Part shown: positions 1,848 through 37,450 of the stretch, piece by piece
Layout of the letters: each line of letters starts with the position of its first letter
Position numbering within the stretch: position 1 is the stretch's first letter
Assembly: GCA_001662655.1 (NCBI GenBank)
Contig: KV460218.1
Strand: one strand, 5' to 3'
Origin: Pseudogymnoascus verrucosus
Taxonomy: Eukaryota
Length of the DNA stretch: 64,000 nt
The notes under the pieces: generated by a model
The model's database searches: none
What the model saw: only the letters and a program-made list of their open reading frames with translations
What the model was told of the DNA's origin: nothing
Translations under genes and position numbers: made by a program

Positions 1848-2489
1848 ATGAACCACAATGGCCCAGATAATTATGTTAGAAACCACGCATTGCAGGACTA
1901 CCAGATGCACTTGATGTTGCTTGAGCAGCAAAAGAAAAGAAGATTATTAATGGCAAAAGAAGCTCTTAAAGAGCAAGATACTGCGCTACAGACAATTACT
2001 TCGGTACTGAATCAGCTTAACATCGTACATATCTCTGTCAAAGAGTTGCTAGCAAATCTTCCCACTTATTTTCAAAATATTGAAGATTTCAAGTCATCCA
2101 TTCCCCGAGATATCAAGACTCTACAAGGCTATGAAGAGAAGCTCGATGAGAAGGAAGCCGAAATCAAAGCTTTAGAGAACAGGTACAACGAGCTGATTCA
2201 CATGACGCCAGAAGCCCAGCAAGGAGAGCTACGGCAGGTCAGGGATAAGGCCATGCTCACAATGCAACAAGATCGGGAAGAATTGACGCGAGATAGAGAC
2301 AATACTGTTGAAAAGATAGAAGAAAGGAATGGACGGATTGAAGGGTTGGGGGTGGCGTTGGGGAGGTCCAGGGAGTTGATGCCAGAGCTGATTGAAGACC
2401 TGAAGAAATTGGCTCCGAAATTGCGTGATGTGCAAATGGACAATTCTAATGATAGCACCGGAACGATTAGAGATACCCATAGAGGTTAG
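1848..2489 (+). CDS. Coiled-coil protein with an N-terminal Som1/Flo8-type 'ALQDYQMxLMLLEQQ.K.RL' motif (upstream exons possible)
   Basis: 213-aa ORF; motif NHALQDYQMHLMLLEQQKKRRLLMA followed by heptad-rich charged sequence. Confidence 0.55.
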   Translation: MNHNGPDNYVRNHALQDYQMHLMLLEQQKKRRLLMAKEALKEQDTALQTITSVLNQLNIVHISVKELLANLPTYFQNIEDFKSSIPRDIKTLQGYEEKLDEKEAEIKALENRYNELIHMTPEAQQGELRQVRDKAMLTMQQDREELTRDRDNTVEKIEERNGRIEGLGVALGRSRELMPELIEDLKKLAPKLRDVQMDNSNDSTGTIRDTHRG

Positions 2490-2739
2490 CATGTATTGTG
2501 GCGTTGCTGTGTACGTATTGAGTATCTAACCTTACGAAGAGAGGCATAATTGAGAACCATTTCTCTTTCTATAATTCCCTTGCTAGTCGGAGCAGCGTTT
2601 ATTTGTCTGTATATAACTTCTGTCGCTCCTTATACTGGACTGAGTGTCTGTCAGATGTATCAGGCATATTTGCCGTTGTCTCCTTTATGCGCATATCGAG
2701 CTCTCTGATTTCAGGTCGTGTTTACGCCATGAAAACGTT

Positions 2740-2990
2740 GGCTGAGACACCTTCTAAGCATCTTGCAGTAGCCGCTCTATCTGTTCTAGGCCATTGCAAA
2801 GCATTAGGCATGGAGGTTCTTAGACAGATGGATTATGGAGTATTGAGGGTTGGAATTGCAGATGTCGCATGTGTTGCAACTCGTCGTGTTGGAATACCAG
2901 CAAGCACACCTCCTCTTATATGACGAGCTGATGTTCACGGCGAGGGATATGATCCCGATGCAGTCGTGGAGGTTGAAGGACGACCTCGTC
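2740..2990 (+). pseudogene. Possible decayed fragment of a fungal RecQ-like (DUF3505-associated) helicase gene
   Basis: Disrupted reading ILQ*PLYLF...AIAKH*AWRFLDRWIMEY*GLELQMSHVLQLVVLEYQQAHLLLYDELMF...MQSWRLKDDL resembles my recollection of this family; stops are compatible with TGG>TAG, CAG>TAG and CGA>TGA changes. Confidence 0.35.
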
Positions 2991-3501
2991 GTCTCCAATG
3001 GCACAGCCATTGTCGGTCAACATACCTCGGTATGTCGTATCATGTTGGAACCCACATAGCTCTGCCTCAAAAATGATCACTCACATGTAACTCCAATGGA
3101 AATACGAATCTCATTGTGGGTCTGCCGGACGTAGCGTTGTTTGAACGGATAAAACGACAGAACCTCCACGTTATCAAGGACGGGGGTGAGGTAGGAAATG
3201 ACATATCTACGACAGAATGGAATTAATGTCCGCCACAAGAGTACCTAAACTTAATCCGATGACCCCCCCTTTCGTTAAGTCCCCGACTTTATCTCAAATA
3301 TTTAGATATAACAATCAAGCGATGGGGCAGAACTCAAGCCACCCAATAGCGACGCAGGCACTTGGAATAGGAAGTATCGTATTCACTAAACGCTCAGAAG
3401 GAGCTGTCGGGGCTAAATATCCCCTGTTAAAATAATCACGCAGGCTACCCGTAGTCGCGCTGTGGTTGAACGAAAGTTAAGATACCCTAGCCGCGATAGT
3501 C

Positions 3502-5076
3502 CTATTCACAGGAATAAACATATACAGTACGTTGTGGATGAGCTTTGATGCTAGGGCGAGCAGTGGATGTCATGAGAGTCGTATGTGCATCGCCCATCGG
3601 AATTGTGTCACTTGGAAAAAGGATGACAGAATCCGTCGCTGCGGTAAACACAATATCTGAAGAAAAGTGACCGATAGAAGATTCGTTGTTGGGAGCAATA
3701 GTTGAAATAGTCGATATAATAAAGGATGATGGACTGGGTGTAAGATCGCTCGCAGATGCAGAGGCAGCACTAGTAGGCAGCACAGGAGTGGTAGACGTAG
3801 TGGACGTGCTAGAAATATCAGAAACATCATCGGTATCGCGATGATAAAGCAATGAGCCCCAACCAAGCCCATCATAATGGCCCGAACCCTCGCCCCAAGA
3901 TCCGGCACCGCCTTCAAAGCCGCCCATTGATCTCACGGTATAATTCTTGTATTGTTCTGTCCAAGGCGCATCGACTCCTTTGATCTGGGCGTAATGGGCG
4001 TATAGTAACTCCCACGTTGGCCTATAGGCTCCACGAGACGCACTGCTGATCTCGGAATATGACACGATACCATTGGTATAAGGCACAAATGGCACCTCGT
4101 TGCCTAGGTTATATCGTGCATAGTATTCAGCTCTGTTACAATGTCAGTCGAGTTCTAGATTCTTCCTCGGTGTAACTTGGCCGAAGACGTACCCGAGAAG
4201 AATACGACTGTTATTGTAGCTGTACAGATCCACGCCTTGGTTCCAGGCCTGTTGTGCAATGACGCCAAGCATCTGGAAATCCAATCCCGAATGGCCTTGA
4301 TCGCGACCAGATTCTTGGCCTTGTCCAATTTTTTTCCCGGTTCCGGGCTCGTCAACAATGTCCGTAATACAGTTGTTGATTGCACCATTACCAATCCCAT
4401 TCTTGAAATATTCAACCGCAAAATCAAACAGGGTCGAGTTGTCTGTGAGTACTCCAAAGGCCATAACTGAAGCCATATTGCAAAGTTCCCAATTGGCAAA
4501 GAAATGTCGGACGTTGTGTTCCGAAGGGGCTTTATGATTGAGAAAGTATAGGTTCTTGGCTAGAAAAGTCCTGGAAAACATGTTGGCAAAAGTTTGCATC
4601 TCGCTCTCAGCGAAAGGCGCGTAGTCCCGGATCAGCTCGGCAGCATTGGCCAGCTCATGACCTTGTAGGCCAGCCGTTAGGTATTCGTCGTCCCCAATGT
4701 CAAAGTTCTCCAGAGTCTCTCCCCAGGCGACAAGGATGGCAGCTGCGGCTTTTGCATATTGTTCATCGCCCTCGATTTTCCAACGCAATCCGAGGGCAAA
4801 GGCTGCGGCGGCATCATGCCAGAGGAGCTGAGCATTTGCTATAGCACCGTTTGCAGTGTCACGATAGACGCCCGGCACAGCATTATTTGTATAGGTAGAC
4901 TGAGAATACACCAGACCAGTGAGTTTGACCCACGAGCTCTGCCAAGGGTCTAGCTGTGCAGCAAGCTTCGACTTTATGCGAGTGATGTCTGCATTGTTAA
5001 CCAAGAGCCCGGGATGAACGAAGGCAGATATCAAAGGCAGGAGACCGATGAGTTGTGAAATAAAGATTGAACGCAT
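3502..5076 (-). CDS. Secreted alginate-lyase-family (alpha/alpha toroid, chondroitin AC/alginate lyase-like) protein with Ser/Thr-rich tail; 2 exons
   Basis: Signal peptide MRSIFISQLIGLLPLISA; FVHPGLL start; motifs FFANWELCNMAS and GQGQESGRDQGH; ORFs 4144-5076 and 3502-4095 joined by a GT..AG intron at about 4133-4190. Confidence 0.8.
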
Positions 5077-5938
5077 ATTGAACTACGGAATCAAATTAAG
5101 TTGCAAACGAGTGACCAAATCGAGAGATAAATTGAGGAATAAGGCGCCGTTAAAGAGCGTGGTGAATTTGCGATTGAACAAAGAGAGGTGCAAAAGACTG
5201 GCATCAGAAGGTGAGTACTGGAGTGGCAACAGAACAGGCCTTAAGAAATTGCGTCGATAAATGGCTCCGGGAGCGATCTGCATGTGCAGTGACGCTTTCG
5301 GTAAAGTATATGACATTCCCTGAAATGATTGTTCCGTGTAACGGACCATCCTAAATGTTTCAAGAAGGAGGGTGAGGGACAGGACAGGACATTAGCAACT
5401 CGGTAGGTATGTTGGTCCTGCCAGGTGGGGGTTTCAGAAAGGTCCAGGGTCCAGGGTCCCGGGTCCAGGGTCCTAGCCCGACCCTCTGATAACAATCGAG
5501 GCGCCACGCTACCGTCTTGTTTGCTGCTCACTCAGAACCTAAAAGCAGCTAGCCATTGTTAAATGAGGGCCTAGATGAATGCATCACCGGGCTTCGGGGG
5601 AAATGCCGGACGTAAGAATGTCTAAGTCGAGCGGCGCGCGACGTGTTTCTAGTTGTGCGGCACTAGCAGAGAGAGGATGGAGCCGTTTTAATGACTGCCC
5701 GAGTAAGGCCAACCAAAAAGAATTCGTGGAAAAAACCTTGAAGTAACGGAATTTTTATTAAACGTACACCGGTATACGTATATTGTAACTCGCAACTGCA
5801 CGAATACGGGCTCCACCATACCGGAATCACAATGAAAGGAGACAGCGCAGAGCCTCATCGGGAGGGCATTGAAATTGTAAGGGCAGCCGCGACAGGCATC
5901 AAAACTTGCATATGTGGCTCAACATACAAGTAACTATC

Positions 5939-5999
5939 ACATACGACCATAGACTCAAGAGAATTGGGCATCCCGTCCGCTCTGCCATACACAAGCTTG
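5939..5999 (+). rRNA. 5S rRNA gene, 5' half (copy 2), interrupted at CAAGCTTG (5992-5999)
   Basis: ACATACGACCATAGACTCAAG...CATACACAAGCTTG; joining it to 11340-11397 gives a 119-nt 5S with helix I pairing ACATACGAC/GTTGTATGT. Confidence 0.9.
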
Positions 6000-6194
6000 T
6001 AGTTCAGTGGATTGATGCTCTCAATCGTGCCAATAGGCATAGCGTGGAATCTGTGCCCCTTGCCGCCTTAAGGGGTGAAGCGAGGGTGAGCAGGGTGAGC
6101 CAAGGGGTAAGCAGGGTGAGCAGGGTAAGTGGGGTGAGGCGACGTGACGTTTTCGCGTCAATTTCGTGTCAGTCTCGCGTCAATTTCGTAATAG
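6000..6194 (+). repeat. Element left-end module L2 (TIR, GGGTGAGCA array ~6073-6138, TTCGCGTCAA repeats)
   Basis: Highly similar to 11725-11897 and to 245-420. Confidence 0.8.
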
Positions 6195-6199
6195 TACTA

Positions 6200-6770
6200 G
6201 AGTGTGGCCGTTTTAGCTTAGTACCTTATTTAAGTGCCTTGTTCTTATTTTCTACAATCTACTACGTAGTAGCTACTTAAAGAGTAAGGGTTTCTATAAT
6301 ATATAAGTATATAAAGAAGCATAATATCTAACACTTTAATATTAGAGCTATAGTCTCTATAAAGGTGCCTTAAGAGAATAGAACCTTAACTAATAATAAG
6401 AGGATCTTTATATACATTCTAGAAGAGCCTTACCCTTATAGAGATTAGATTCTTACATACTCTAGTATTATATAACACCTTATACCTATATAATAACTTA
6501 GGGTTATAGAGTAAGCTCTATAGTCTAATATCCTAATTCTTCCTTCTATAAAGTAAGTAATACTAGGGCTTATAGCTAGAGAGGCTTTTATAAGTACATA
6601 GGTTAGAATATTATGCTAATATAAGGGTTAATGTAGTATAAAGAGGAGCTATTGTTATAAGGAAGCAAAGGAGTGTAGCGTATACTATTATAATGACAAC
6701 TATAACTATAGTAATTTATTAGGTCTAGCTACTCGTATAGAAATAGCTCTAGTTAAGAGGCTAAAGCGGA
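6200..6770. other. AT-rich, TpA-enriched, RIP-like degenerate segment
   Basis: Abrupt drop in GC, abundant TA/TAG/TAA, no ORFs. Confidence 0.65.
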
Positions 6771-7160
6771 AGCGGGCAAGAGCAGACACTACTGGAAATG
6801 TAGTATAGAGCAATCAATCTATTTACTATTCTATTATACTACTTTGCGAATGGGCCGGCCACTTAGCCAACTGGCCTACTTAGTGGCAGGGCTAGAACAT
6901 ATGTAACAGCTAGTTGCATTCGAGGGTGCAACTGCAGAAAAGGGAATCATTTATCTAACGAAGCACTCATATCACAGTTAATACGTTTGCAAGGAGTAGC
7001 TTTGCTAAGATGATTAGTCTCTCTCTACCCTCGATGTATTTATTATGCCCCTTCGTAAGAAACGTAAGCTATCTTTCATTCGACGACCCTGTGAGCGAGG
7101 GATTTCAGATGGTCACCGACACGTTTGGTATTGCTTCTATAGTGGGACTAAGACGGATAA

Positions 7161-7221
7161 ACATACAACCATAGACGCATTAGAATTAGGCATCCCGTCC
7201 GCCCTTCCATACACAAGCTAG
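7161..7221 (+). pseudogene. Degenerate 5S rRNA 5' half (copy 3)
   Basis: ACATACAACCATAGACGCATTAGAATTAGGCATCCCGTCCGCCCTTCCATACACAAGCTAG; same break point as copies 1 and 2, with several substitutions. Confidence 0.8.
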
Positions 7222-7290
7222 CAATTGATTGCTTCTTACTTGCTCTCAATTGTGTTAATAGGGTCAGCGTAGGATCTTGGCCCCTTGCTG
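7222..7290 (+). mobile_element. Degenerate element left end L3
   Basis: GCTCTCAATTGTGTTAATAGGGTCAGCGTAGGATCTTGGCCCCTTGC aligns to L2 GCTCTCAATCGTGCCAATAGGCATAGCGTGGAATCTGTGCCCCTTGC with several C>T and G>A changes. Confidence 0.65.
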
Positions 7291-7385
7291 AAGGTACCCT
7301 CTAATTGAGTCCCTCTCACAGTGCTCTAAGTGCAAGAGCTGGCAAGCCCAACTATTATCACGAAAGTTGAGTTTTAAGAAACACT

Positions 7386-9492
7386 TTACTGAGAGCGACG
7401 AGAATTAAGCCACCAATGTGACAATGCTGACAATAGACCCACCCCACCAGCGGCAATAATGAGATTATATCTATTTCCAAGTTAGCAATGCTTCCCTGAA
7501 GTCCCATACCGTGACATACATGCTCCCTATGACATCGATAATAACCGCGATAGCGAGTTCGCGATCTCCCCGGGACAGACCCGCCAATCCGTCTCCCGAG
7601 ATAATAGCCTTGATGTCCTCCAGCCCTAAGCGAGGCAACGCAGCCCCCAGACCCCGAAGGGACCTGTTTAGTAACACCATGTAGCTGATCCCCAGTGCGA
7701 CTAGGGCGCCCATCTCCTGCGCTAGCATAATGAAACCGACGCTCTGTGCCTGGGTGTCGGGTGCCGCGCCGGCAAGGCGTTGTGAGACGGAGAAGGAGAG
7801 CTGCTGGTAAAGGCCGGTGCCGAAGCCGATGAGAATAGAGTAGATGTAGATCCTAGTCGTGCCGCTGGGATTATTAACTGTAGCTGGGGCAGGGCGTCAG
7901 TACATGGTGCCTAATTGGGGTGTATGGAGTAGGCAGTGCGCTTACTGAGAAGGGTGCCGCCTATAAGAACCAGGGCTGCCCCTGTTAGGTAATATATGGA
8001 CGCTGGGATACGAGGGAACTTCGAGAGCGTGTAGCCGCTAAGTAGACAACTTGCTACCAGGAGTATAACTAGTGGCAGGAGTCGCACGCCAGCCATGATG
8101 GCGCTGTCACCCTAGTGTTCTTTAGCTTTGTAGGAAGTAAATGTGCAGGGGTGACCATACCCGTGTCAGCTGGAAGAATAGGGGCAGGTAGTAGATGGGA
8201 ATGAAGACGCCGGCCGAGGCGCAGGCTATGACTGTTAGCACAGTTGAAGCAGCACTTGCGGACTGTCGGTCTAGTTACCAGTAAGCAGGAACAAGATGAC
8301 CTGCCTAGCGGATCTCAGGTACGCGACTGGAAAAATGCGGTTGTTGGGCGAGGTGCATAGGGAGAGCCATTGCACAATGCAGAATGAACAGGAGAACATA
8401 AAAGCTAGCGCAAAGAGAGTGATGACCCTGCCGTGATCCCAAGGGTACGACACACCTCCAAGCGTAATTCCCATGAGAAATGTTGTTAGGGCGCCGCTCT
8501 GGAGAGCCCAACCTAGCCAGTCGATGCTCCAAAAGAGTGTCAGATAAGGTCTGCGGTGTGGTATTTCGGGGTCTTGAATGAGAAAGATGTAAGCTGGCAT
8601 CACCACCGCGCCAATGACCAGGTTGATGTAAAAGGCCTATTCTCAACATTAGAACTTACTAAAAAGCAATAGCGCTAAATATGGTTTCGATAAATATCAT
8701 ACCCATCTCCAAGTTGCAGAACTCGCGGCGAAGCCACCGCCGATGATGGGGCCGAGGACGGTTCCTGCACCCCATGACCACCCTGTCAAGGCGAAATACA
8801 TGGGCCTTTCATTCAAGGAGGTCATGGAGGTAATTAGGGCCATCACACCGAAATAGATACCCGTTCCCTAAACACTTTGATGTTAGTTCAAGAACCCAGA
8901 TCTGTGGGGGAAGTCAAGAAGATCACGTACACCTGCTCCAGCAATTGCCCTCCCAATGATCAACATGTCCATGCTAGTTGCAGCACCGCACAGGGCAGAG
9001 CCTAGCTCAAAGCAAAGCACAGTCTAACGGAAGCCGGTAAGTTAGCAAATATTTAAATAGCCTATAGCAAAAAACGCAATATCCATACCAAGACGAAAAG
9101 CCATTTCTGGCTTACGAGCGTGTAGAGCTTCGACCAGAGTAGTACAAATGCCGTTCCAGTCAGGACATATGCGTTTGGAATCCAACTGAGTTGGTCGATG
9201 GACTTGAATTGCTGGACAATGTGGGGCTGGATGTCGGCGACGATAGTGTTGTCGAGGGCATAGAGGAAGTTACCTACTATTAGGGAGGAGATTATCACGG
9301 CGAAACGGACCTTTGGTTGCGTGTTAGCGGTTTTTGTTGTAATTATGAGGTTTTTAGAGGGTTACGGACAGGTCCTGGCTTTTTGGTAGGCTCCTGTTCT
9401 TGGCTTTCCAGGCTGCGGTCTTCGTCTTCTGCTGAGTTTGCCATTTCTGATATAGTGTCCTGTTTTTCATGTCTAGCGGCGCTTCTTGACAT
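7386..9492 (-). CDS. MFS drug:H+ antiporter (DHA2/14-TM efflux pump), multi-exon
   Basis: Exons read FLYALDNTIVADIQPHIVQQF, LCFELGSALCGAATSMDMLIIGRAIAG, WGAGTVLGPIIGGGFA, IDWLGWAL, AGVRLLPL and YSILIGFGTGLYQQ, all typical of fungal DHA2 pumps; GT..AG introns with CTAAC-type branch sites. Confidence 0.85.
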
Positions 9493-9699
9493 TTATACAC
9501 ATGGTCTAGATGGAGTGAAGTGTTCATTTCCTAACTTTTGTTTGCCATTTTTTATTAGGTAGATGTTTTGTCAACACGCTAAGCTATACTATGAATTAGG
9601 GGAACTCAAAACCAGTTCTCACGACCTAGCACTTCTAGGCGCTTCTAAGCTTTAGGTGCCAAGCCTTTAATATAGATGGAAGGTTAGCATGCTAAGCAT

Positions 9700-9887
9700 T
9701 GTTGAGTCAACATTACGATGTTTTATGAAATTTAATTTTAAAGAAGAGTATGTTGAGTCAACATGGTGATAAGTAATGAGAACGTCGAAAATAAATATCC
9801 GCTAAATTAGTGTGCTGAGCTAATCCGACGAGACGTTTTGAATGGGTACTCATACTAGTTAGCCGATGTTGGCATGTTGAGTCAACA
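9700..9887. promoter_or_regulatory. Three palindromic TGTTGAGTCAACA (AP-1 core TGAGTCA) sites in the divergent promoter
   Basis: Exact copies at 9700-9712, 9751-9763 and 9875-9887; a partial copy TGTTTTGTCAACA lies at 9564-9576. Confidence 0.65.
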
Positions 9888-9960
9888 CGCACAACTTTCT
9901 TTCATCGAACATCATTTCCACGCGTTGCAACACAACTGTCTGAGATAGATAGAAATCGAC

Positions 9961-10915
9961 ATGAACAAGAAGATTACCATACCTACAGCTTTACTAGATA
10001 ACGGTATGTTCTGATTTGTGCTTGTAATATTACCGTTGTGATACCCATCCCTAACATGACACAACTTTAGTTAACCGTCGTCGAGAACAGCTTCGCCAAG
10101 GCCAGCGCGCTCACCGCGAACGCAAAAACAGACGGGTAAAGGATCTCGAAGCACGTGTTAAGGAACTAGAGGCAACCGTGTTGGATCTTGAAAGTCAGCT
10201 TCGATCAGCTCGTACCCTAGAATCCAGCCCGCATTCCCTTAGTGGTATCGTCACCAACGAGAACGTCGCTACTACCCCGCTGTCAACTTATATTCCCCCT
10301 CTGGACTTCGCAGCTCTAGGCGCAATAGAAACCTCTTGTTCTGAGCTCCCATCATTATGTTTATTAGGCGAGAGAGACGTTTCAATCCCCAACTATGACG
10401 TGTCCATGTCTTTGGCAGAGACGACAGAAGCTCAAGATGCACCAACAATACTAGCTACCCTTCCTACAGAGTCTCTAGCTCTTCATCAACGTCTTGAGTA
10501 CCGCACAGTCCAACGAACCTTAGAATACATCCTCACATACGACCTCGCGAGCCTCAACCGTGTGTTTATGTTCCACGTAAACGACCCCAGCATACGGCAT
10601 TCGTACATGCATCCCGAAGCCAGCGAGGCCAACAGACTACTCAGCACTGTTCTTCTACGAGGCTATTTTGCTTTCGAGTGGCCGCCCGTGATCATTCCGT
10701 TGGCGGAAGAGGCGTTAACCAAGCAGGGCAGCTATATGGATGCTCGTCAGGTGGAGAGCTATTTAACGACTTTCAAGGAGGCGTATCCCTTATGTCTGAG
10801 CCTACGAGCGGATGATTTTATAGCGAGTTTGTCTAGGCTAGCAGTGTGTTTTGGTTGGCACGGGCCGTACTTCACAGTTCAGGATGTGGTGGAGTGTGCT
10901 AGGAGGATTAGCTAG
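9961..10915 (+). CDS. bZIP transcription factor (Yap/AP-1-like basic region), 2 exons
   Basis: ATG at 9961, intron GTATGT..TTAG at 10004-10070, then NRRREQLRQGQRAHRERKNRRVKDLEARVKELEATVLDLESQL, in frame with ORF 10178-10915. Confidence 0.85.
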
Positions 10916-11060
10916 TGATGTGTAAATGGTAGTGTCACATGAAATATAATATGCTTATCATTCACGAAGAGCGGCTGTTCACTATAAATGGCTCCATACT
11001 TAAACCGGCTGTTTGCAAAATCTAGACATGGCGGGAGCGTGCCTTTTATACCATTTTCAA

Positions 11061-11331
11061 GCTCACCCTCGTTCACCCTCGCTAACCCTCGCTCACCCTG
11101 CTCACCTTCGCTCACCTAGGTACCGGATTATCCATGGCCATCTAAAGTCGCGGTGCATCGCGTTCATCGCGTTCATCGCGTCTTAATACAAGACCCACTT
11201 CGTGCGTGTCGACGTGGCCGCCATTAGGTAGCTGAGGGGGACAACCGGATTATCGTGAGGCATCAAAAACTTGAGGGCAGCGACGCTCACCCGCTAGTCT
11301 AAATGGCACCGTCCTGAGTATTAATCCACTT
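11061..11331 (-). repeat. Element right-end module (GCTCACCCT array 11061-11117, CATCGCGTT x3, ACCGGATTATC x2, TIR 11292-11330)
   Basis: Reverse complement of the left-end GGGTGAGC(A/G) array; the terminal 39 bp are an imperfect inverted match to 6006-6044. Confidence 0.75.
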
Positions 11332-11397
11332 CAAGCTTGAGATCGGTGGATTAGTAGTTGGGTGGGTGACCACCAGCGAATACCCACTGTTGTATGT
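11332..11397 (+). rRNA. 5S rRNA gene, 3' half, followed by a Pol III T-tract
   Basis: CAAGCTTGAGATCGGTGGATTAGTAGTTGGGTGGGTGACCACCAGCGAATACCCACTGTTGTATGT then TTTT. Confidence 0.9.
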
Positions 11398-11504
11398 TTT
11401 TGATTGTATTTTTTTTGCCATTTTTGTATGTTAAATTTTGGGGCCACTGACGCTTGACGTGTGCTTGGGAGAAAGGTGGGGGGACGGGGCTAGGTTGTTG
11501 TGTG

Positions 11505-11670
11505 TGGCCGCTACTCAATAAGGGCGCTAACGTCAACGCGCTCCAGTCAGCTTCGGCTCTAGGCCACAAGCAGGTTGTGAAGTTGCTTCTCGACAAGGGC
11601 GCTGAGGTCAACCAGCACGCAAGATGAGGAATATGATAGCGCGCCTAACGCAGCATTAGGAGGGCACAAC
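11505..11670 (+). pseudogene. Ankyrin-repeat fragment (NACHT-ANK-type repeats)
   Basis: Translates LLNKGANVNALQSASALGHKQVVKLLLDKGAEVN; no start codon and no flanking domains. Confidence 0.7.
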
Positions 11671-11724
11671 CGATTCTCAAGAACTGAGACCCCGTCTACA
11701 CTTCGAAGTCTTCGTATCTGAATG

Positions 11725-11897
11725 ATAGACATAGCGTGGAATCTGTGCCCCTTGCCGCCTTATGGGGTGAAGCGAGGGTGAGCATGGTAAGCAGGGTGAG
11801 CAGGGTAAGCACGGTGAGCAGAGTAAGCAGGGTGAGCGGGGTGAGGCGACGCAACATTCTCGTGTCAACTTCGTGACTCGCGTCAATCTCGTAATAG
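11725..11897 (+). mobile_element. Orphan element left-end module L4 (5'-truncated, no adjacent 5S half)
   Basis: ATAGACATAGCGTGGAATCTGTGCCCCTTGCCGCCTTATGGGGTGAAGCGAGGGTGAGCA... closely matches 6033-6194. Confidence 0.8.
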
Positions 11898-12269
11898 ATC
11901 CGTCGAAAGGTGTTGTCGCTAGCAATTCCCCATATCCCGACGTAGTCTTTTCAATTTCTACAGAGAAATTTATCTGCGACAAGAGGGAGCCATGGCGCCT
12001 GAATCTCCTCTGGGCGAGTCAGTGATCTCTGGACCTTTCAGCTTGTACGAGGGGAGTTTCATTTTAGAGTTTTTGGAGCCACATCCCTCGAGAGATGCAA
12101 CGTGAGTCGCAAAGCCAACAAAGCTAAGAACACCCGCTCAAAACTCTTTGCTAACCTTGATCTAGAGTTCTGATAAGAGCAACGTACAAACACGACCACC
12201 CTCTCTGCAAACAAGGCAAAGGTCATCCTCAGGTAGGTAGATACCTTAAGACGGATATCCTATCCCGTT

Positions 12270-12867
12270 TCCATGTGACATCCACCAACAAGAAATTCAG
12301 GCACCGCCTCTCCACCTCCATTTCAATCAATCAGAGACTTTCCAGGTCCTCCAAGGCCAAGTAGCCACCGTCGAGGGATGGTCTGTAACCACGAAGGTCT
12401 ATACCCGAGAGGACGGGCCGCATGAGATCAAGCCATGGGTACCTCATAGCTTTAACCCCGTGTCAGATAGCCCTGAAGATACCGTCCTGCTGGTCTGGGC
12501 GCACCCTGACGACGTCGATGAGATGATGGACAGAGTCTTCTTTACAAACTTGCTGATGTACGTCAGCGACGTGCATGAGAAGAAGGTTTCGCTAAACCCG
12601 TTCCAGATCATGCTAACCCAGTGAGTTCTCCCCTCGCCGAAATGCAAGATTAGGGCCTGAAAACTTACTCTTGCTAGGCATGTTTCTGCCACTGCCATGG
12701 TATGGTTTCCTACCGCGACGTGGCTGGGCCCGCTGCGCTGGTGGGTACCGTGGAAGGTGCAAGCCTTGTTTGCTGCGGCAGGGAGATTGATGGGGTTGAC
12801 CCCTATGATGAAGAGGTATACCTCGGATGAAGAGTTTGCAGAGATTCAGAAGACGAAGAGGACTTGA
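12270..12867 (+). pseudogene. Cupin-domain protein, 5' end missing or frameshifted; one intron
   Basis: QAPPLHLHFNQSETFQVLQG...HEIKPWVPHSF cupin motifs; intron GTGAGT..CTAG at about 12621-12677; stop at 12865-12867; no clear in-frame ATG. Confidence 0.6.
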
Positions 12868-13149
12868 AGGGTCGTTCTATGAAGGGTCGTTCTATACCTA
12901 AGAAAACGTGTCGATCCCGTAGATACATCGTTTGTAATTCCAGATTCTTGACGCTATGCAGGAGCTGGATTCCATCTTACATGCTTTACCTTTGAGTTTA
13001 TATTTCTATTTTATATAATGCTTCTAGATATGGTTCCATTGCAGTGTATTAGAGAAGTAGCAGGTACCGCTAGCGACATACTATCTATTTACAAGCGTCA
13101 CGGCGCCCATAGGTTACAACCTTCTCTCTTGTATTGTACTTATTGATCT

Positions 13150-13507: not shown

Positions 13508-15060
13508 TTAAAATAATTCCATCTTCCTTAGAGGCATCCCCTCCTTATCCCAGGTTTCAGGAAGGAAATTCTCCCCAATGACCCCCAAACATGTACTAGT
13601 TTTAGAATTATAGATGTCATCAACAAGGGACGAGTCGACATCTAGAAGCTCTCTTGGAAAACGATCTGTTTTTCTTGTAGCAAATCTTGCGACCTCCTTT
13701 CGAGCTTCCTCGTGGCGAGATTTTATTTCTAAGGCCTGATTTTCTTGGCACCCACCTGCACCATAGGTAATGCGACGGTGGCTCTTTTCAACAAGTGCGC
13801 GAGTAATGACCATCTCTTCAAGTTTTGTAATATCGCGTACTAACGTGAAGAGCGTCTCAAAATGGGCCTGGATGAGAATCATATAGTTAAACCGCATTGT
13901 CTTCAGCGTCTTGCTATGCCGCCTGAGGAAGCTTTCTACGCTGTCAAGCGTGATAGTGCACCATTCCAGATCAATACTCTCCAATTGATCACTTGATATT
14001 GCATCCAAGATAGGAGAAAGTTCCAAGGGGGAAGTCTCCATGCTCTCCTTGGTATATATTCGTAGATGTCGCAAATGTGGAAGGCCACTAAGGAGCAAAG
14101 CGGCAAGGTTTTCGCGGTGGATATCGGTAAACCCAGGCCTATTCCAAGTCCTAGTTCGCATTGGAAGGGTTAGAGAAGAAAGGTTTCGAAGAGCGGGGAG
14201 AGATGCTTTAATGATGCTAGGGTCCAGTGTGGTAAAGTCGTCGACTTGGTAGAAGAATTCATTTTCTTTGAGTACTAGAGTAGAAAGGCTAGGAATCGTT
14301 GTTCTTGCTGCAGCTTGCAGAAACCTGTCGAGGGCACGGCCATTCTTGAAGGGATCTGGTTCTAAAATTTGAATTTTGACTATTGCGTTGACACTTGTCT
14401 TCCTAGCATATTCGCTCCAGTTGCACAACTGGACCTCAGTCAAACTAGTAAGCCTCTGGAGTAGCGCTGAAAGGATATCGATATCCGTCTTCTCATTGAT
14501 AAATTTGTTATACTCCTCAATGATTCGGCCATGTTCTTTGTATGCGCCAAACAGAGTCTCGGGTGTCCAGCCGAGCTGTTTAAGGCCGTCTGAAATCGCG
14601 GTCTCCGGAAAATCAGCCACAGTTGCACTCTGAAAGGCCTCACTAGTAATTGTTGAGCGGTCTACACCTCGGATAATACCTTGCGCGTAGCGAAATCCCG
14701 GTTGATGCTGAGCACTAAAAGTACTGAGGAATCCTCGTGGTTTTGGAGCTCCGGTTTGTAACATGCCATCCTGAATCAACAGAGTTGTCACATGCCGGCT
14801 GAGGCGAGCAGATTCCGAGATTGTGGCGAGTCTGATACATTGTTAAGAGGGTAATTGCAAGTATGATATAAGGGAGTAAGGGAGGTAGCGTACCTGTCAA
14901 GGTCTTCCGGGCCTAGCCAGAACGCGAGGCAAGAAAAGAACAGTGGTGTCACGCGGGCGTCAAGCTCCTTACACACAAGTGAGAGCGCTTTGAGGTCTGA
15001 AGTGGGAAGCTCTGAGAAGATTTGTTGAATGACTTCGTTTGGAAGTTTCTGGAAATACAT
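13508..15060 (-). CDS. F-box protein with LRR-like C-terminus; 2 exons
   Basis: MYFQKLPNEVIQQIFSELPTSDLKALSLVCK F-box; intron 14893-14832 (GTACGC..CAG) joins it in frame to the 427-aa ORF. Confidence 0.8.
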
Positions 15061-32591: not shown

Positions 32592-33331
32592 TGGTGAGGC
32601 GGAGTTGGGAGGAATGGTTATATGGCTGTCGGTCTGGATTTATGGCAAGTATTTGGCCCGTGTGGGTTATCTGCTTGTTGTGTTGGCTATGAAGGGCAGA
32701 AGAGGAGAGCCCGATGGGATGGATTTATGATCGAAATAGCATTAAACTTATAAAACGGAATATCACCGAATTGATTCGTGAAACACTGTGCTTTAAAATA
32801 TATGAGAACATGGCTGACATAGATTGGCTTATTTATCCCATCAGGACGTATATTCTGTTGCTAAATCCGAAGAATTTCTCAATCATACCAGGCCACTCGC
32901 ATATGCCAAGCATACCGCAAACAGTTTTTGGAGTGATCGACAGGGCTTCCAAAGTTGCGATTGCGGGGGGATTTTTAAGACTACATAGTGTTTACCTTTG
33001 GCATATTGAAGAGTGAAGCAGTTGGCTAAATTAATCGGAATCTGTTTCTTATCACCTTGTGGCTGTGCACCCCTGCCGGTTATACTTCCTATTTAGTTAG
33101 ACGTTAAGTAACAGACGCATCAGCCGGTATACTAAGCCCCAATCACCTCACCACAGACTTCCCGCCTTGTAAGACGGCTTAACTACCAGATAAGAGCCTA
33201 CTATTGCAAACTTTTAAAATTGTCGGAAAATTATCTCTACAGTTAAAAAAACAGCACAGGTTTCAGCGTTGTGACCAAGAAATCACAGAGGACGAGAGGA
33301 AACCAGAAACCCCGCAGTGTAGAAAACCAAA

Positions 33332-35646
33332 ATGTCTCAACAACCTCCACCATCAGGATCGATGAAGATTTCAGCCACTGTTCCATTTGAGCAGTTGCGC
33401 GAGCTTCTAGCCTCGCCAGCAATAACCTCATCCGTTGGGAAAGCCCAAGACCTCATCAACATACAGCCACCTGACAAGGTGTGCACCGTGTGCGTGAACC
33501 TCGACCCGTTCCTAGCCTTCAAAAAAAGCAGTGCGGACCAGCACAAACTCTGGGCCGACAAAGAGTATAAAATTTCCAGCGGAAACCCATTCGGGAAAAT
33601 AACCATCGAAAAGTCGAAATACTTGCTTGATGCTGCGAAAGGTGGCTGCATTTATTGCACGATGGTTCAATCAGCACTCGGTGCTGTATCCCCGGGGTGG
33701 GAGACCGAAGGGTCATACATTCATATCTTCCTTGCGCTTGGCCTGCCCGTGGTCGTGCGGCTAGAGTTTGGCACGATTTCAAGCCTTCCTATCGAGAGGG
33801 AAGCTGCAGATGGTTTGTTCCAGATCGAGTTACCACAGGGCTTTGATTTGGATTTTGTTATCACTGTTGGCTCTGGTTCGGACGCTTCGAAAGCTTCGAA
33901 ACCTGCCATAGATGTTGAAATTTATCGGCCTCGACTCGCACCCGATCAGTCAATTGTTGGCGGTACGTCGTTCAATTATAGTAGGACCAAAGTTAGACAA
34001 GAGATTGCTAATGGAAATGGCTAGATGCTGTCTTGGCGGGACTTGTCCCCTTCGTGGGCTTTGCAGAAGAGATACCCCGACATGTTGGTGATAAAAGATG
34101 CCTTACCTTCATACAAAGTCAATTGTCCCACTGTCTCAACAATCAAAGTTGCTGGGCCCGCAAAGGCTTGCCTTTACTTCCAGATCGCGTCGTCTGGATC
34201 GAAGCCAACAATCCAAGTCGTATTCAGCTTATAGAACCCAAAGGCGTCCGTGCCATATATCTTGCACTCAGTTATTGCTGGGGGCCTGTGAGCTCTGACA
34301 CTTATCTGACAGATGCATCCACTTATGAGACTAGGAAAGCTGGTATACAGTTAGATGACCTACCGCCTCTTTTCCAAGACATCATTGCGTGTGCTCGTGC
34401 GCTTGGAATTCAATACATCTGGATTGATCGGTTGTGCATCATTCAAGGAAGCGATGCTGATTTCAAAACGCAGGCCCCAAAAATGGGAGAGATTTACGGA
34501 AATGCCACTGTGACCATAGCAGCCGCTTCTGCTAGTTCCGAACAGGACCGCATCATGGTGGAACGAGACAAGAAATGGGCTACTTCCAGCGTCAGCTTGA
34601 CTGTTAATGGAATTGGGGCCTTGAAGCTTCAATGTCGGAGGCGATCGCATCCTTTAGAAAAGGAGGACACAGGCGGTGACTATGGCAAGGTGTCCACTCG
34701 GGCATGGATCTGGCAGGAACGCCTCCTCGCTGAAAGAACGATATTCTTTACTCCTTCTGCCCTAAAATTCGAATGCCGGTGTCATTCCGTCTGGGAAGGT
34801 TTTGACCAGGGGATCTCAGGCCACTCATGGTCAGCGCAATTAGAAACTATATCACACAGCTCATGGACATTGTTAGTGGAGGAATTCACGAAAAGAGACA
34901 TCACTCGTCCTTCGGATCGGCTACCAGCCATGGAGTCTGTCATGAAGCGCATTGAAACGAAGACAAACTGGACGCCTCTTTGGGGTCTGTGGAAAAATAC
35001 ACTCATAAAGGGTCTAGCTTGGGAACCGCAGCCGTCTGGACACTGGGGAAGGCATGACTGCCGCATGAACCCTGGCCATTACGCTCCAACCTGGAGCTGG
35101 GCAAGCGTCGATGGCCCAATTTCCTACATCCATGCTAGACCTTTGGACATCATCTCCCAAATCGACCCCATTAGCTATGACCTAGAATATAGAAAGGTCA
35201 ATGCTGCTTCGGGTTCAATCACAGTGGCTGGCTACCTCGTTCCCGTCGAGCTCGGTGTTACTGTTAAGCGTGAAGAGCATGTTGAAGGAAACTCGGTCGA
35301 ACAGGAAGAATATACCTACGATTATAAGGTAAAAATCTCAAATAGCGAAGGTCTAAAAGATTCTACACTCAAGCCCGATGTCGCCTTGAAGCCGTGGAGC
35401 GGTGAGATCGGTGGGCAGCTGGTCTCGACTGTTGTACGAGTTCCATATGGAGAATCTCCTCCAAAAGCATCTTGGACTGGTACCTGCCACTGCTTATTAA
35501 TTGGTAAGACAAAGAGGCGATGCCTTGTCCTCTACCTGGGCCGCTCGTTACGGGAGCCAGGTGCCTGGGAACGGATTGGAATGGTGGATGGGATGTCACC
35601 AACAGTATTCTCGATGTCCCAAAGGGAAATCATTAATATTGCTTAA
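33332..35646 (+). CDS. HET-domain (TOL-like) protein; 2 exons
   Basis: YLALSYCWG, LGIQYIWIDRLCIIQ, MGEIYGNATVTIAA, TRAWIWQERLL, APTWSWAS; intron 33963-34024 joins the two ORFs in frame. Confidence 0.9.
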
Positions 35647-36472
35647 TGTTTTGTCAGGATAGCAATGTATGTTCCCTTCCCAAGACTATCCACTACCTCG
35701 CGGCATGGTGCACTCCAAAGGTCTGAGGAAACAATAACTAGGTTATTATCAACACTAAGAGTTGAATGATTGACAGAGGAGTTCTTTTCGAGACCGCTTG
35801 GATGAACATCAGGTTGGATTTGTGATGCATCATCCTTCGTGGTAGTTGAAGGACAACCTCTACGCAAAAGACGACGCTAGCCCTCAAAAGGATAATTTCA
35901 ATTTCAAGGCAGGTGCTTGGTTTAATGAAGTGTAGCTAGAGGAGACTTGCATGCCCCTATATACACACATATATAGATAGAATATAAATACGGACTACAG
36001 AAACCAAGGCGGGCTGATCTACACTAGTACCCCTAGTAGGGTAGCTCCCGAAGGAAATACCCCACTATGGATCAAAACCTTAATTGGTTCCCTTATGCCC
36101 CACAATTTTGACCGCACTAACATCAGGTCCAACATTCGCGACCCCTTCCTTCCTTCTGTTTGTCTTCTCTTCAAAGAATATGTAGGAGGAAGCTGGCAGT
36201 CTATCGTTGGTACTTTGATGCTTTCTCTACTTGCTACATTTCTAGAGGTCTGAAACTTTTGAGTGTCCTACGCGAAGGGGGTCTAACACAGCTTGTAGAT
36301 TAAGCTAGCTGTCTCTACATTTACTTGAATAAAGTGCCTACCATAGCTACCGCTTGCAATATTCAGATAAGAAGTGGCTGTCGAGGCGTCCGTTGTACAT
36401 CACTCCCATTCTCAACCCCACCCACATCTGAGATCAGGAAGTGCACTTTCAGAGCAAACAAACTCAACCACA

Positions 36473-36960: not shown

Positions 36961-37450
36961 TAAGTAGCTATATTTAATGGGGGCTTTCCTTTTTTTGAAG
37001 TTTCTTATCTTTTAAAAATAGGGAAATAAACAGCTTTATTTAAAGGGAGGCCTCTTTTTAATTTTCTAGTTTTTTAATTTTTATAAATGAGAAACAGCTA
37101 GATATAAAAGGAGCTTTCTTTTATTTTCTAGTTTCTCATTTATAAAAACCAAGAAAATTATAGTTTTTATCCCTGTCCTTTGCCTCTCTTCCCCCTCATA
37201 TCCTCTAACCACCTTTATATTATTGTTTATTTTTACAAAGGCCATTATAAGTTCCGTTAGCTGCCCTATTACTTTATACACTTAATTTCCATCATCCATA
37301 GCCTCTTCTACCTGTTGTAGGGCTTTATATGCCTGCAACTCATTTTGAATGAAGTTTTTAAGATGCTGGAATCCGTCCATTTCATTTGTACCTACATTAA
37401 AAATGTAATGTTAGCAAATTTCTCTTAAATAGATGCGTAATTCCCCATTT
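36940..37450. other. AT-rich RIP-like degenerate segment
   Basis: Sharp GC drop with TA and poly-T/A enrichment, no credible ORF. Confidence 0.5.

Follow-up and report, generated by a model that had tools for sequence, protein, structure and literature searches.

A 5.3-kb insert within a Pseudogymnoascus 5S rRNA gene: a candidate non-autonomous mobile element with a transporter and a regulator as cargo

What kind of sequence interrupts a 5S rRNA gene at a single nucleotide, carries two genes and brings no recognizable enzyme of its own? The question arises from a locus in a Pseudogymnoascus fungus, where 5,332 bp (6000-11331) are integrated between nucleotides 61 and 62 of a 119-nt 5S gene. 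All coordinates refer to the window, by which we mean the whole 64-kb stretch of DNA that was analyzed. The reading we place first, with evenly balanced confidence, is that of a non-autonomous, site-specific, cargo-carrying mobile element in the 5S gene, for which the captain of an Enterprise-family Starship, acting in trans, is the most likely enzyme. The locus matters because an enzyme-less element of 5.3 kb would occupy the 5S spot that is used by the giant Starships of Aspergillus, together with a transporter and a regulator that, judged from their sequence, look like working genes.

The interrupted 5S gene and the ends of the insert

The two halves of the gene and the two ends of the insert are arranged as follows.

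5939..5999, + strand: 5S 5' half, nt 1-61; terminates in the left CAAGCTTG copy (5992-5999)
6000..6254, + strand: left end (LE), conserved terminal module of ~255 bp, defined by similarity, contig depth and inverted-repeat statistics
6006-6059: LE inverted repeat, core AGTGGATT
6038-6075: LE conserved core
6079-6138: LE GGGTGAGC(A) array
6153-6189: LE, two copies of TCGCGTCAATTTCGT
11040..11331, + strand: right end (RE), ~290 bp, defined by similarity, shuffles and contig depth
11061-11116: RE inverted GCTCACCC array
11122 and 11244: RE, two copies of ACCGGATTATC
11156-11185: RE, three copies of CATCGCGTT
11272-11330: RE terminal inverted repeat
11332..11402, + strand: right CAAGCTTG copy (11332-11339), 5S nt 62-119 (11340-11397) and T-run terminator, from the Rfam alignment

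When the halves are put together they restore a 119-nt 5S gene. CAAGCTTG is a perfect palindrome of 8 bp that corresponds to 5S nt 54-61; it stands at both junctions and occurs five times in the 64 kb. The 5' half is identical at 59 of 59 nucleotides to a second 5' half at 186-244. The 3' half (11340-11398) matches positions of about 55-120 of the Rfam model 5S_rRNA (RF00001) with 23.6 bits and an E value of 0.17, the RE tip included. In that alignment the AAG of the right CAAGCTTG copy falls on model positions 55-57, and AAGC, which is nt 55-58 of the 5S gene, on model positions 55-58. At the gathering threshold (38 bits) the same model has no match in the 64-kb window, and the 3' half scores below it because the gene is split. 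The rejoined 119 nt are predicted to form the three-arm fold of a 5S rRNA (-35.9 kcal/mol), with a z score of only -1.7 against 200 shuffles.

In contigs from all four public runs, position 5991 is joined seamlessly to 11332, with 7-8 shared letters. These contigs are intact 5S paralogs that hold exactly the rejoined sequence, and their sides are only 21-23 nt long. We found no empty allele of this particular locus, which counts against reading the insert as a mobile element.

The ends of the insert are imperfect inverted repeats. Aligned to the reverse complement of 11272-11330, the repeat at 6006-6059 scores 17, a value reached by none of 2000 shuffles, and BLAST reports 69% identity over 39 nt. 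It lies 6 nt in from the left tip of the insert and 1 nt in from the right tip, which makes an offset of 5 nt. Further inside, the subterminal arrays at 6074-6129 and 11061-11116 are inverted relative to each other and 83-89% complementary (0 of 300 shuffles as high). The inverted repeat at each end has the core (A/G)GTGGATT, a motif also present in the 5S gene 6 nt beyond the crossover, and the reverse complement of the RE tip aligns to 5S nt 68-90 with a score of 11 (1 of 2000 shuffles as high). The first-pass annotation had described a 5S gene split by about 5.3 kb, a repeat duplicated at both junctions, imperfect 39-bp inverted-repeat ends and inverted subterminal arrays, and all of this anatomy holds.

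One could also argue that there never was an insertion and that halves of different 5S genes were joined, either by ectopic recombination or by mis-assembly across the 5S and left-end repeats. 5S 5' halves and left ends are indeed repeated in the genome, at up to 100% identity (61 nt), and the Logan contigs of two public runs, X1 and X2, break within these repeats, which leaves the link between left flank and LE without an independent bridge. However, the halves meet at an exact single nucleotide, where the octamer stands on either side, and restore a full 5S gene, and the inverted-repeat ends of the unit point towards each other. Moreover, an independent contig from run X4 holds both 5S junctions, which makes an assembly chimera unlikely. 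We regard the absence of an insertion as very improbable.

A more serious question is what type of element the ends belong to. The classic signature of DDE transposons such as hAT, P and Mutator elements consists of a flanking repeat of 8 bp, terminal inverted repeats and subterminal arrays, and what we see at the two junctions fits a DDE transposon equally well. The main rival to our reading is a non-autonomous DNA transposon of the cut-and-paste type (hAT-like, or from another DDE superfamily with 8-bp duplications) that captured host genes in the manner of ToxhAT or Pack-type elements. Its transposase would bind the subterminal repeats and the GTGGATT of the 5S gene, and it would be a fungal counterpart of the Dada elements of fish. 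The significance of the imperfect inverted repeats and the inverted orientation of the short-repeat arrays favor this rival. So does the 8-bp repeat, the length of a hAT target-site duplication, although length alone fits the crossover core of a recombinase too. The positions of the inverted repeats at the two junctions, however, differ by 5 nt, whereas DDE ends are cut at the repeat tips and offset inverted repeats are unusual, and CAAGCTTG is unlike the hAT target pattern nTnnnnAn. On balance we consider a DDE transposon unlikely.

Cargo genes and the search for a recombinase

The insert carries two genes on either side of a common promoter.

7404..9444, - strand: MFS transporter gene (DHA2/TRI12-like), ~6 exons, intact; from tblastn with the protein P0010 and Pfam
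9564..9887, no strand: shared divergent promoter with three exact and one degenerate TGTTGAGTCAACA palindromes, TGAGTCA core
9962..10915, + strand: gene for a bZIP transcription factor, in which a single short intron lies between exon 1 (begins with the ATG at 9962) and exon 2 (from about 10070)

P0010 is an annotated P. verrucosus protein of 530 aa. Its residues 1-525 are covered by tblastn over all exons of the MFS gene: identity is 85-100% in four ungapped segments, residues 100-382 form a single alignment with intron gaps, and the exon 8271-8636 matches P0010 at 100% over 98% of its length. P0010 matches Pfam MFS_1 at 9.5e-34, and the frame of the gene is intact across exons. Both MFS_1 and TRI12 match the exons, for one of which the TRI12 match (E 0.0011) lies below the cut-off. 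The bZIP gene starts with MNKKITIPTALLDN at 9962, and 10070-10912 is 100% identical to residues 15-295 of the protein P0018 (295 aa). Against Pfam bZIP_1 the protein reaches 18.5 bits (E 0.0022), less than the cut-off of 27.6; in UniRef the identical protein is called 'BZIP domain-containing protein'.

The exact TGTTGAGTCAACA copies all lie in the promoter, at 9700, 9751 and 9875. If up to two mismatches are allowed, there are nine copies in the window compared to 1.47 expected, and none of 100 shuffles gives nine. The TGAGTCA-core palindromes are probably the bZIP regulator's own sites, and we infer a regulatory link between regulator and transporter. The two genes are intact and adjacent in at least five Pseudogymnoascus genomes (consecutive locus tags), in two of which the gene context is a different one. 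The idea of a functional gene pair thus survives to the extent that reading frames can tell, since both genes look intact.

A recombinase or transposase was not found in the element, whose seven longest ORFs match only MFS_1, TRI12 and bZIP_1 in Pfam; the insert is recombinase-free, as had been proposed. No match to DUF3435 was obtained in the window (Pfam, 87 of 123 ORFs of at least 110 aa), and L002, an unrelated public contig with another copy of the LE, likewise had none in its first 10 kb (17 of 42 ORFs scanned). If the family has the orientation of Osiris, a Starship of Aspergillus fumigatus, a captain would be expected directly after the LE. There is none downstream of the five readable LE copies (four in the window, and L002 for 10 kb), which counts against a captain as the enzyme. 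As to the DDE transposon, the ORFs scanned in the window and in the first 10 kb of L002 include no transposase except an unrelated pogo-like one; autonomous copies may lie elsewhere in the genome.

The first-pass annotation had seen a Starship-like, non-autonomous element whose ends should recur at other 5S loci or beside a DUF3435 gene. The insert is indeed bounded, site-specific and recombinase-free, with recurrent ends and an Osiris-type target, and copies of its ends do lie at other 5S junctions, but no DUF3435 gene adjoins the element or the copies examined. Lacking a captain, which is expected if it is non-autonomous, the element cannot be filed as a Starship proper. Starships measure tens to hundreds of kb and carry many cargo genes, whereas the insert has 5,332 bp and two genes; its boundaries, with direct repeats that match the target and terminal inverted repeats, are those of a Starship.

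Copies of the ends and a composite interior

Membership in a repeat family is confined to the two ends, the left one of ~255 bp and the right one of ~290 bp. In the four public runs examined, the ends have multiple copies and the interior has one, a pattern detailed for X1, X2 and X3. Summed contig depth in X1 is ~4070 at 6002 and ~4460-4500 at 11156-11257, compared to ~206-211 in flanks and interior. X2 and X3 show the same pattern, and in all three runs the RE is multi-copy at 11032-11315. An end depth of ~20-fold is high for Starships, which usually have low copy numbers, and multi-copy ends around a unique interior are found in families of deletion derivatives, as the DDE transposon would have it. 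Distinct X1 contigs number at least 13 over 6002, 5 over 11156 and 7 over 11072.

The LE junction occurs at the identical 5S nucleotide three times in the window, the element's own included, and once in L002, which confirms, together with the X1 contigs over 6002, that the ends are present at other 5S loci. L002 reads 5S nt 1-61, CAAGCTTG and LE, and its positions 26-336 are 89% identical to 5934-6254 of the window. Within the window, the 5S 5' half at 186-244 continues into an LE copy at 245-420. LE copies at 260-416 and 11725-11897 are 80-81% identical to the LE of the element, and a further LE fragment (11690-11900) lies behind an ankyrin-like gene fragment. Besides 11040-11331 the window holds no RE copy; a marginal RE-like remnant at 5837-5910 has a score that is reached by 4 of 500 shuffles. 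Three 5S 5' halves with an LE thus stand against a single RE that continues into a 5S 3' half, so some of the structure must stem from rearrangement and not from clean insertion.

The genes past the LE of L002 differ from those of the element: a methyltransferase fragment, the pogo-like DDE ORF, two LysM genes and a GH18 chitinase gene with a chitin-binding domain. Varied gene sets behind one LE, and whole genes with introns and promoters, are more typical of Starships than of DDE transposons.

The whole unit is found in another organism. A contig of 5,293 nt from X4 contains the element with both 5S junctions (it spans 5970-6092, 6132-6268 and 6954-11369) and differs at 30 positions in the aligned block 6954-11369 (4,416 nt). 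In X3 there are 15 differences over 3,895 nt of the element (~0.4%), compared to 84 differences and 28 gaps over ~1,180 nt of the right flank (~7-9% diverged). The element is far more similar than its flank, which speaks for the small unit having moved or been transferred recently. X1 and X2 have the flanks of the element in common. They also contain, at single-copy depth, a joint of RE, 7 nt, AAGCTTG and LE, as tandem or attP-like arrangements would give.

The left part of the interior has a history of its own.

6269..6953, no strand: AT-rich, RIP-like, nested multi-copy repeat, from composition and depth
6954..7160, no strand: unique spacer upstream of the inner 5S half, without another match in the window
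7161..7290, + strand: older inner junction, '5S nt 1-61 + left-end remnant', which uses the identical 5S nucleotide

The nested repeat has a GC content of 0.33, a TpA/ApT ratio of 1.68 and a (CpA+TpG)/(ApC+GpT) ratio of 0.60, and its summed depth in X1 is ~13x that of the interior. In the X4 contig it is replaced by 577 nt that do not align at 85%. The spacer resembles neither the outer left flank nor the RE. The inner junction is 83% identical to 5939-6009 (71 nt) and 79% identical to 6016-6063 (48 nt); in a separate alignment its 5S half reaches 88% over 59 nt. Hence the element is composite: it acquired a RIP-degraded repeat and contains an older junction of a 5S 5' half and a left end. This build suggests that it probably arose by recombination of two left junctions, or that an earlier insertion was re-mobilized with its upstream flank. 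Of the simple mini-cassette proposed by the first-pass annotation the bounded, site-specific insert remains, but it is composite and lies amid a cluster of solitary junctions.

Such a patchwork could also mean that the 5.3-kb unit never moved. Under this explanation one or several large captain-bearing 5S Starships, perhaps nested, were whittled down by deletion and LE/RE recombination to an immobile relic, later spread by vertical inheritance or introgression. It would account for a locus with three left junctions, one RE, the LE fragment at 11690-11900 and the RE-like remnant at 5837-5910, and it agrees with the RIP-like decay inside the element and with the common flanks of X1 and X2. Yet both ends, both octamers and both cargo genes are intact, the X4 contig has the same small unit between both 5S halves, and in X3 divergence is confined largely to the flank. 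We think a relic quite unlikely.

Candidate mechanism and comparison with known systems

How might the element have moved? Its ends would act as a binding platform for an enzyme supplied in trans, which would recognize one motif common to element ends and 5S target. That enzyme could be the tyrosine-recombinase 'captain' of an Enterprise-family Starship; we propose it because such captains occur in Pseudogymnoascus genomes and because Osiris integrates at the 5S AAGC motif in Aspergillus fumigatus. The octamer CAAGCTTG would then be the crossover core common to attP (RE-CAAGCTTG-LE) and attB (the 5S gene), and not a staggered-cut duplication. The cargo is a self-contained module of an MFS transporter and a bZIP regulator that are transcribed divergently. 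Against a captain it must be said that we found no description of subterminal arrays of this kind for Starships.

More tentatively, the element may represent a natural 'mini-Starship' family: captain-less cassettes of a few kb that need in cis only their ~255- and 290-bp ends with arrays of repeats to which the captain binds, are mobilized by a resident Enterprise-family captain into the 5S AAGC site and recently moved between Pseudogymnoascus species with a self-regulated efflux module. Suppose this were true. The family would be the Starship equivalent of MITEs or mobilizable islands, and its solitary left junctions would be what has long been known as truncated '5S pseudogenes' in filamentous fungi. 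Rooney and Ward, as well as papers from the 1980s, reportedly described fungal 5S 5' halves followed by a conserved non-5S block, and these resemble the solitary junctions of our window. The block in Aspergillus is said to be similar to immunoglobulin switch repeats, and would in this respect resemble the GGGTGAGC arrays. These pseudogenes are not known to have been interpreted as transposon junctions.

Among DDE transposons, Dada-5S of ray-finned fish also inserts specifically into 5S rRNA genes, and ToxhAT shows that a cargo-carrying hAT-type element exists in fungi. Dada-5S is reported from animals, with 6-7-bp duplications (8 bp here), a transposase of its own and no host cargo (PMC8869645). 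ToxhAT, with its 14 kb, resembles our element in that it is small, has inverted repeats as its boundaries, lacks a working transposase and moves a functional gene between species (PMC12506042). It differs by having no rRNA-gene specificity and by its identifiable hAT transposase remnants, of which the element has no trace. In the literature compared, nucleotide-precise targeting of the AAGC 5S site in fungi is documented only for Starships.

Trans mobilization of a Starship has an experimental precedent. Urquhart et al. (2023) report that a captain-defective mini-Starship was mobilized in trans: miniH-phi, an engineered minimal HEPHAESTUS, is small, has its captain complemented in trans and excises without a footprint (PMC10104507). 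In contrast to our element it is artificial, belongs to the Hephaestus family and targets TTAC(N7)A and not 5S; its retained flanks are 3.8 kb and 1.9 kb long, compared to conserved ends of ~255 and 290 bp in the element. Voyager of Macrophomina phaseolina has the same strict 5S rDNA specificity and disrupts the targeted copy, but it inserts 20 bp from the 5S start, is ~70-90 kb long, bears a captain and is present in 0-4 copies (PMC9156397). Among Starships, 5S targeting arose at least five times, and direct repeats of 6-16 bp are typical of it (PMC11162782); Enterprise captains belong to fam06, a family catalogued for the Pseudogymnoascus assemblies psever1, psesp.10 and psesp.2 (PMC11162782).

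Osiris, of the Enterprise family, is the closest comparison. It is 11.7-139 kb long and encodes its captain, compared to 5.3 kb without one here; its host is a Eurotiomycete and ours a Leotiomycete, and subterminal arrays, present in our element, have not been reported for it (PMC12153272). The inverted repeats are unlike as well (gaacgcggtcaataccc compared to AGTGGATTGATGCTC): the ends have no clear sequence in common with those of Osiris. The one resemblance, a short motif of the type CGYG(G)TCAAT, falls short of significance. On the other hand, Osiris lies inside 5S rDNA, has terminal inverted repeats and carries host-type cargo that includes MFS transporters and transcription factors (PMC12153272). 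Both integrate at the 5S AAGC motif (about nt 53-64), the repeat of our element being nt 54-61, and the direct repeats of Osiris are ttaagccac, aagcc and aagccacacg (PMC12153272, Table S3). Placed by the AAGC motif and by the Aspergillus 5S sequence, these repeats and CAAGCTTG appear to cover the same 5S nucleotides, and the right edge of CAAGCTTG would be that of ttaagccac.

A split 5S rRNA gene and its insert

The split-5S insert is a real feature. It lies between nt 61 and nt 62 of a 5S rRNA gene and consists of a left end (LE), a cargo of two genes and a right end (RE), with an additional 5S-LE junction inside.

Features of the split 5S gene and the insert
5939–5999: 5′ half of the 5S rRNA gene (nt 1–61)
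5992–5999 and 11332–11339: octamer CAAGCTTG, a perfect palindrome, at both junctions
6000–11331: insert, 5,332 bp
6000 to about 6254: LE; conservation with other copies extends to this point
6269–6953: AT-rich segment with RIP-type dinucleotide bias (TpA/ApT 1.68; (CpA+TpG)/(ApC+GpT) 0.60)
6954–7160: unique DNA, 207 bp
7161–7290: diverged second copy of 5S nt 1–61 plus the first 70 nt of LE (83% and 79%), joined at the same 5S nucleotide
9444 to 7404, minus strand: MFS transporter gene, about six exons; the annotated Pseudogymnoascus protein P0010 (530 aa) covers residues 1–525
9564–9887: divergent MFS/bZIP promoter, roughly 520 bp, with TGTTGAGTCAACA palindromes (three exact, one degenerate)
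9962–10915: bZIP gene, two exons, 100% identical to residues 15–295 of the annotated Pseudogymnoascus protein P0018
about 11040 to 11331: RE
11340–11397: remainder of the 5S rRNA gene, then a T-run

The first-pass annotation had claimed that the two halves rejoin into a 119-nt 5S gene and that a repeat is present at both junctions. Both claims hold. An Rfam search found no complete 5S in the window; under permissive settings it aligned 11340–11398 to the 3′ part of RF00001 (23.6 bits) and placed the AAG of CAAGCTTG at model positions 55–57. The 5′ half is identical in 59/59 nt (nt 3–61) to a second 5′ half at 186–244. The rejoined 119 nt take up the three-arm 5S fold at −35.9 kcal/mol, with a z of only −1.7. 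Contigs from 4/4 public sequencing runs (X1–X4) contain the joint 5991 to 11332, with 7–8 letters in common and sides of only 21–23 nt. Hence, intact 5S genes with the exact rejoined sequence exist in those genomes.

The ends also have the structure that was first ascribed to them. Both have an imperfect inverted repeat (core AGTGGATT(G/A)AT(G/A)CTC...GTGCC), whose score of 17 was reached by 0/2000 shuffles; its start is 6 nt in from the left tip versus 1 nt in from the right tip. Inverted subterminal arrays of GGGTGAGC(A) units lie at 6079–6138 and 11061–11116 (score reached by 0/300 shuffles). Short direct repeats are found in LE (two copies of TCGCGTCAATTTCGT) and in RE (three copies of CATCGCGTT and two of ACCGGATTATC). 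The repeat core GTGGATT is present in the 5S gene too, 6 nt past the octamer. In reverse complement, the RE tip is similar to 5S nt 68–90 (score 11, reached by 1/2000 shuffles), and the LE tip shows a weak similarity to 5S nt 62–80 (57/2000 shuffles; 143/2000 for the LE of the public contig L002).

No recombinase or transposase family was matched by the seven longest ORFs inside the element, in agreement with its initial description as recombinase-free. The MFS gene matches P0010 in ungapped segments that are 85–100% identical, with the exon at 8271–8636 at 100%. Exact copies of TGTTGAGTCAACA are absent from the rest of the 64 kb outside the divergent promoter; allowing up to two mismatches there are 9 matches where 1.5 are expected, and 0/100 shuffles reach 9. 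The palindromes have the core TGAGTCA, the bZIP site of the AP-1/Gcn4 type. The three exact palindromes are probably bound by the element’s bZIP protein, which would drive its own gene as well as the transporter. Such control would make the two genes a portable, self-regulated export module.

Copies of the ends and of the whole unit

Two further LE copies lie in the window outside the element. At 184–420 the second 5S 5′ half (nt 1–61) is followed by CAAGCTTG and then by LE (81% identity). It has no matching RE; the only RE in the window is that of the element. We may be looking at the left junction of an element that is larger or has been rearranged. The next 5S half follows after about 5.5 kb of genes, an alginate lyase (4144–5082) among them. 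Another LE copy, at about 11690–11900 (80%), lies just ~300 bp downstream from the split gene; it has no 5S half and lacks its first ~30 nt. It is preceded by an ankyrin-repeat-like gene fragment (11500–11640, read by eye). Directly upstream of the split gene, 5837–5910 weakly resembles the subterminal part of RE at 11237–11308; the match is marginal (4/500 shuffles) and may be a remnant of a neighbouring element’s RE.

The window is otherwise an ordinary filamentous-ascomycete chromosome arm, with HET, copper-fist, citrate synthase, tubulin and Nrd1 genes. Its proteins match annotated ones of Pseudogymnoascus verrucosus and Pseudogymnoascus sp. (Leotiomycetes) at 100% identity. The region 33323–41751, with a HET-domain gene (34012–35646), a 1,366-aa WD40-repeat ORF (37651–41751, minus strand) and an adjoining AT-rich stretch at ~37000–37700 (GC 0.33–0.37), looks like a typical fungal non-self-recognition neighbourhood. 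The ORF at 13508–14842 (444 aa) was considered as a captain, the DUF3435 tyrosine recombinase of Starships, and rejected: it matches no Pfam family and looks by eye like a protein of the leucine-rich-repeat type.

When public metagenome and WGS contigs were scanned with a 22-nt LE pattern, two loci matched; genome contigs and viral contigs gave 0 matches each. One, on a high-GC, bacterial-looking contig, is a chance match. The other, L002 (RCNJ01000357.1), contains 5S nt 1–61, CAAGCTTG and LE, at 89% identity over 323 nt. LE is joined to the same 5S nucleotide in L002 as well as at 184–420 and 7161–7290 in the window. The genes after LE differ in L002 (1–10155): a methyltransferase fragment, a pogo-like DDE ORF (1937–3307), two LysM genes and a GH18 chitinase that also has a chitin-binding domain. 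Genes of the LysM and GH18 types are listed among the Starship cargo of Aspergillus fumigatus (Table 1 of PMC12153272). No DUF3435 was seen in the first 10 kb of L002 (17/42 ORFs scanned), and no RE lies within those 10 kb.

Logan contigs of the four runs were aligned to 4500–13000. X1 does not differ from the window. X2 represents the same locus in a close relative, with 11 differences in 4,773 nt of element sequence and with 6/1,459 and 4/1,268 in the flanks. In X3, 7170–11064 shows 15 differences over 3,895 nt, versus 84 differing positions and 28 gaps in the right-flank contig (11822–13000), so that the element is far less diverged than at least one of its flanks. X4 has a single 5,293-nt contig with 5970–6092, 6132–6268 and 6954–11369, that is, part of the 5S 5′ half, LE, the whole cargo, RE and part of the 5S 3′ half, with 30 differences over the 4,416-nt block 6954–11369. 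Cover at ≥85% is absent on the left flank 4500–5635 (X3, X4) and on 11600–13000 (X4), which we did not count as evidence. Likewise, X21, a second run of organism D, contains next to none of the sequence words; none of this was counted as proof that the locus differs or of a presence/absence polymorphism. No insert-free allele of this particular locus was observed.

The AT-rich segment is multi-copy in X1–X3 and replaced in X4 by 577 nt without alignment at 85%. Together with its dinucleotide bias, this suggests that RIP-like mutation is active on repeats in these genomes.

The ends are far more abundant than the interior. In X1 the depth of 6772–11031 equals that of the flanks (about 206–211), versus a summed depth of ~4,070 at 6002 and ~4,460–4,500 at 11156–11257; these are summed k-mer depths, not copy numbers. 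Distinct X1 contigs covering 6002, 11156 and 11072 number 13, 5 and 7, and X2 and X3 are alike. Hence, there are many diverged copies of the ends. In some contigs RE runs into LE through the octamer; this joint links 11325 to 5993 across 7 other letters and has single-copy depth in X1 and X2. In others an LE follows shortly after a complete 5S 3′ end. Copies therefore also stand in tandem or in rearranged settings.

One could also argue that the insert is an immobile relic of larger elements, or that it results from rearrangement or assembly artefacts. Both junctions lie on one molecule, confirmed by the independent assembly of X4. We consider these explanations doubtful even when taken together; they share the probability left by the two enzymes discussed below.

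Consecutive locus tags place the MFS gene next to the bZIP gene in at least five Pseudogymnoascus genomes. In two of these (82–93% protein identity) the gene models extend into a second, TRI12-type MFS and a FAD_binding_2 fragment, neither of which is in the window. The pair therefore occurs in another gene context too, possibly the donor locus.

Which enzyme may move the element

The unit is bounded and has no enzyme of its own, its ends form a family, the same 5S nucleotide is reused and the content behind LE varies. We infer that the element is moved in trans. For a Starship captain as the responsible enzyme we see about an even chance. According to PMC11162782, 23% of curated Starship sites are in 5S rDNA, with direct repeats of 6–16 bp that match 5S motifs; the Starship direct repeat is DNA common to the element termini and the target (PMC10104507). 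The manually curated Osiris elements of A. fumigatus, Enterprise-family Starships of 11.7–139 kb, have the repeats ttaagccac, aagcc and aagccacacg (Table S3 of PMC12153272). These contain the 5S motif AAGC, nt 55–58 in the split gene; going by this motif, the element’s 8-bp repeat would occupy the same 5S nucleotides. Enterprise captains belong to fam06, and fam06 captains are present in P. verrucosus and two Pseudogymnoascus sp. assemblies among the starfish-catalogue entries listed (PMC11162782), at psever1_KV460230:4001–5783, psesp.10_KV455007.1:22530–24673 and psesp.2_contig875:13590–15363. Among the entries listed, the catalogue’s direct- and inverted-repeat strings gave no relevant match to the element’s motifs. 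Finally, the captain-defective mini-Hephaestus has been moved by its captain supplied in trans (PMC10104507).

Two side observations concern Starship motifs. The LE repeat TCG(C/T)GTCAAT (6153–6189) is similar to gaacg(c/t)ggtcaat, the inverted repeat of Osiris, which has one extra G and the same C/T variation; the match is too short for significance, and a common captain-binding motif is conceivable. In X1/X2 a contig joint (5958 to 6630, opposite strands) brings 5S nt 20 next to the AT-rich repeat in inverted orientation. Voyager Starships insert at 5S nt 20 in Macrophomina (PMC9156397), and these genomes may hold a second kind of 5S-targeting insertion.

If a captain is at work, RE-CAAGCTTG-LE would be attP and the 5S gene attB. 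The GTGGATT motifs would be core-type binding sites common to element and target, with the GGGTGAGC arrays as accessory sites of the arm type. The stacking of three left junctions (5S 5′ half, core, LE) ahead of a single right one would then be explained by recombination between such left junctions, as would the composite nature of the element.

A DDE transposase also fits and is the less likely of the two, at roughly a one-in-five chance. Its textbook signature comprises an 8-bp duplication, inverted repeats at the ends and arrays of subterminal repeats. There are 5S-specific DDE transposons in fish (Dada-5S; PMC8869645) and cargo-carrying hAT derivatives in fungi (ToxhAT; PMC12506042). Four points speak against it. 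First, the inverted repeats are offset by 5 nt. Second, the target sequence is not hAT-like. Third, the cargo consists of whole genes that differ between copies. Fourth, the target matches a documented Starship target.

Relation to known elements

Under either enzyme, a mobile transporter-plus-regulator module is documented in the genus of the bat white-nose pathogen, and a mechanistic origin is offered for the many 3′-truncated 5S pseudogenes of filamentous ascomycetes. Such truncated pseudogenes were already the subject of older work in Aspergillus. Truncated “5′ half” pseudogenes are known in filamentous fungi (PMC5555474, citing Rooney and Ward 2005). The solitary 5S-LE junctions in the window suggest that these pseudogenes are transposon junctions. 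In the literature searched we found no paper linking Pseudogymnoascus, 5S genes and Starships or transposons. If the enzyme is of the DDE type, this family would, within that literature, be the first among fungal DNA transposons to combine nucleotide-precise 5S specificity with a cargo of whole genes.

Starships that target 5S genes are already known, and mobilisation in trans is known from an engineered element only (PMC10104507). We found no description of a natural captain-less or non-autonomous Starship in the literature searched. Starships are described as giant elements with their own captain; if the insert is a natural 5-kb captain-less relative, then captains also service small cassettes. 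A relative of this kind would define minimal cis-acting ends with candidate captain-binding repeats, and offer a compact, 5S-targeted gene-delivery vehicle for fungi.
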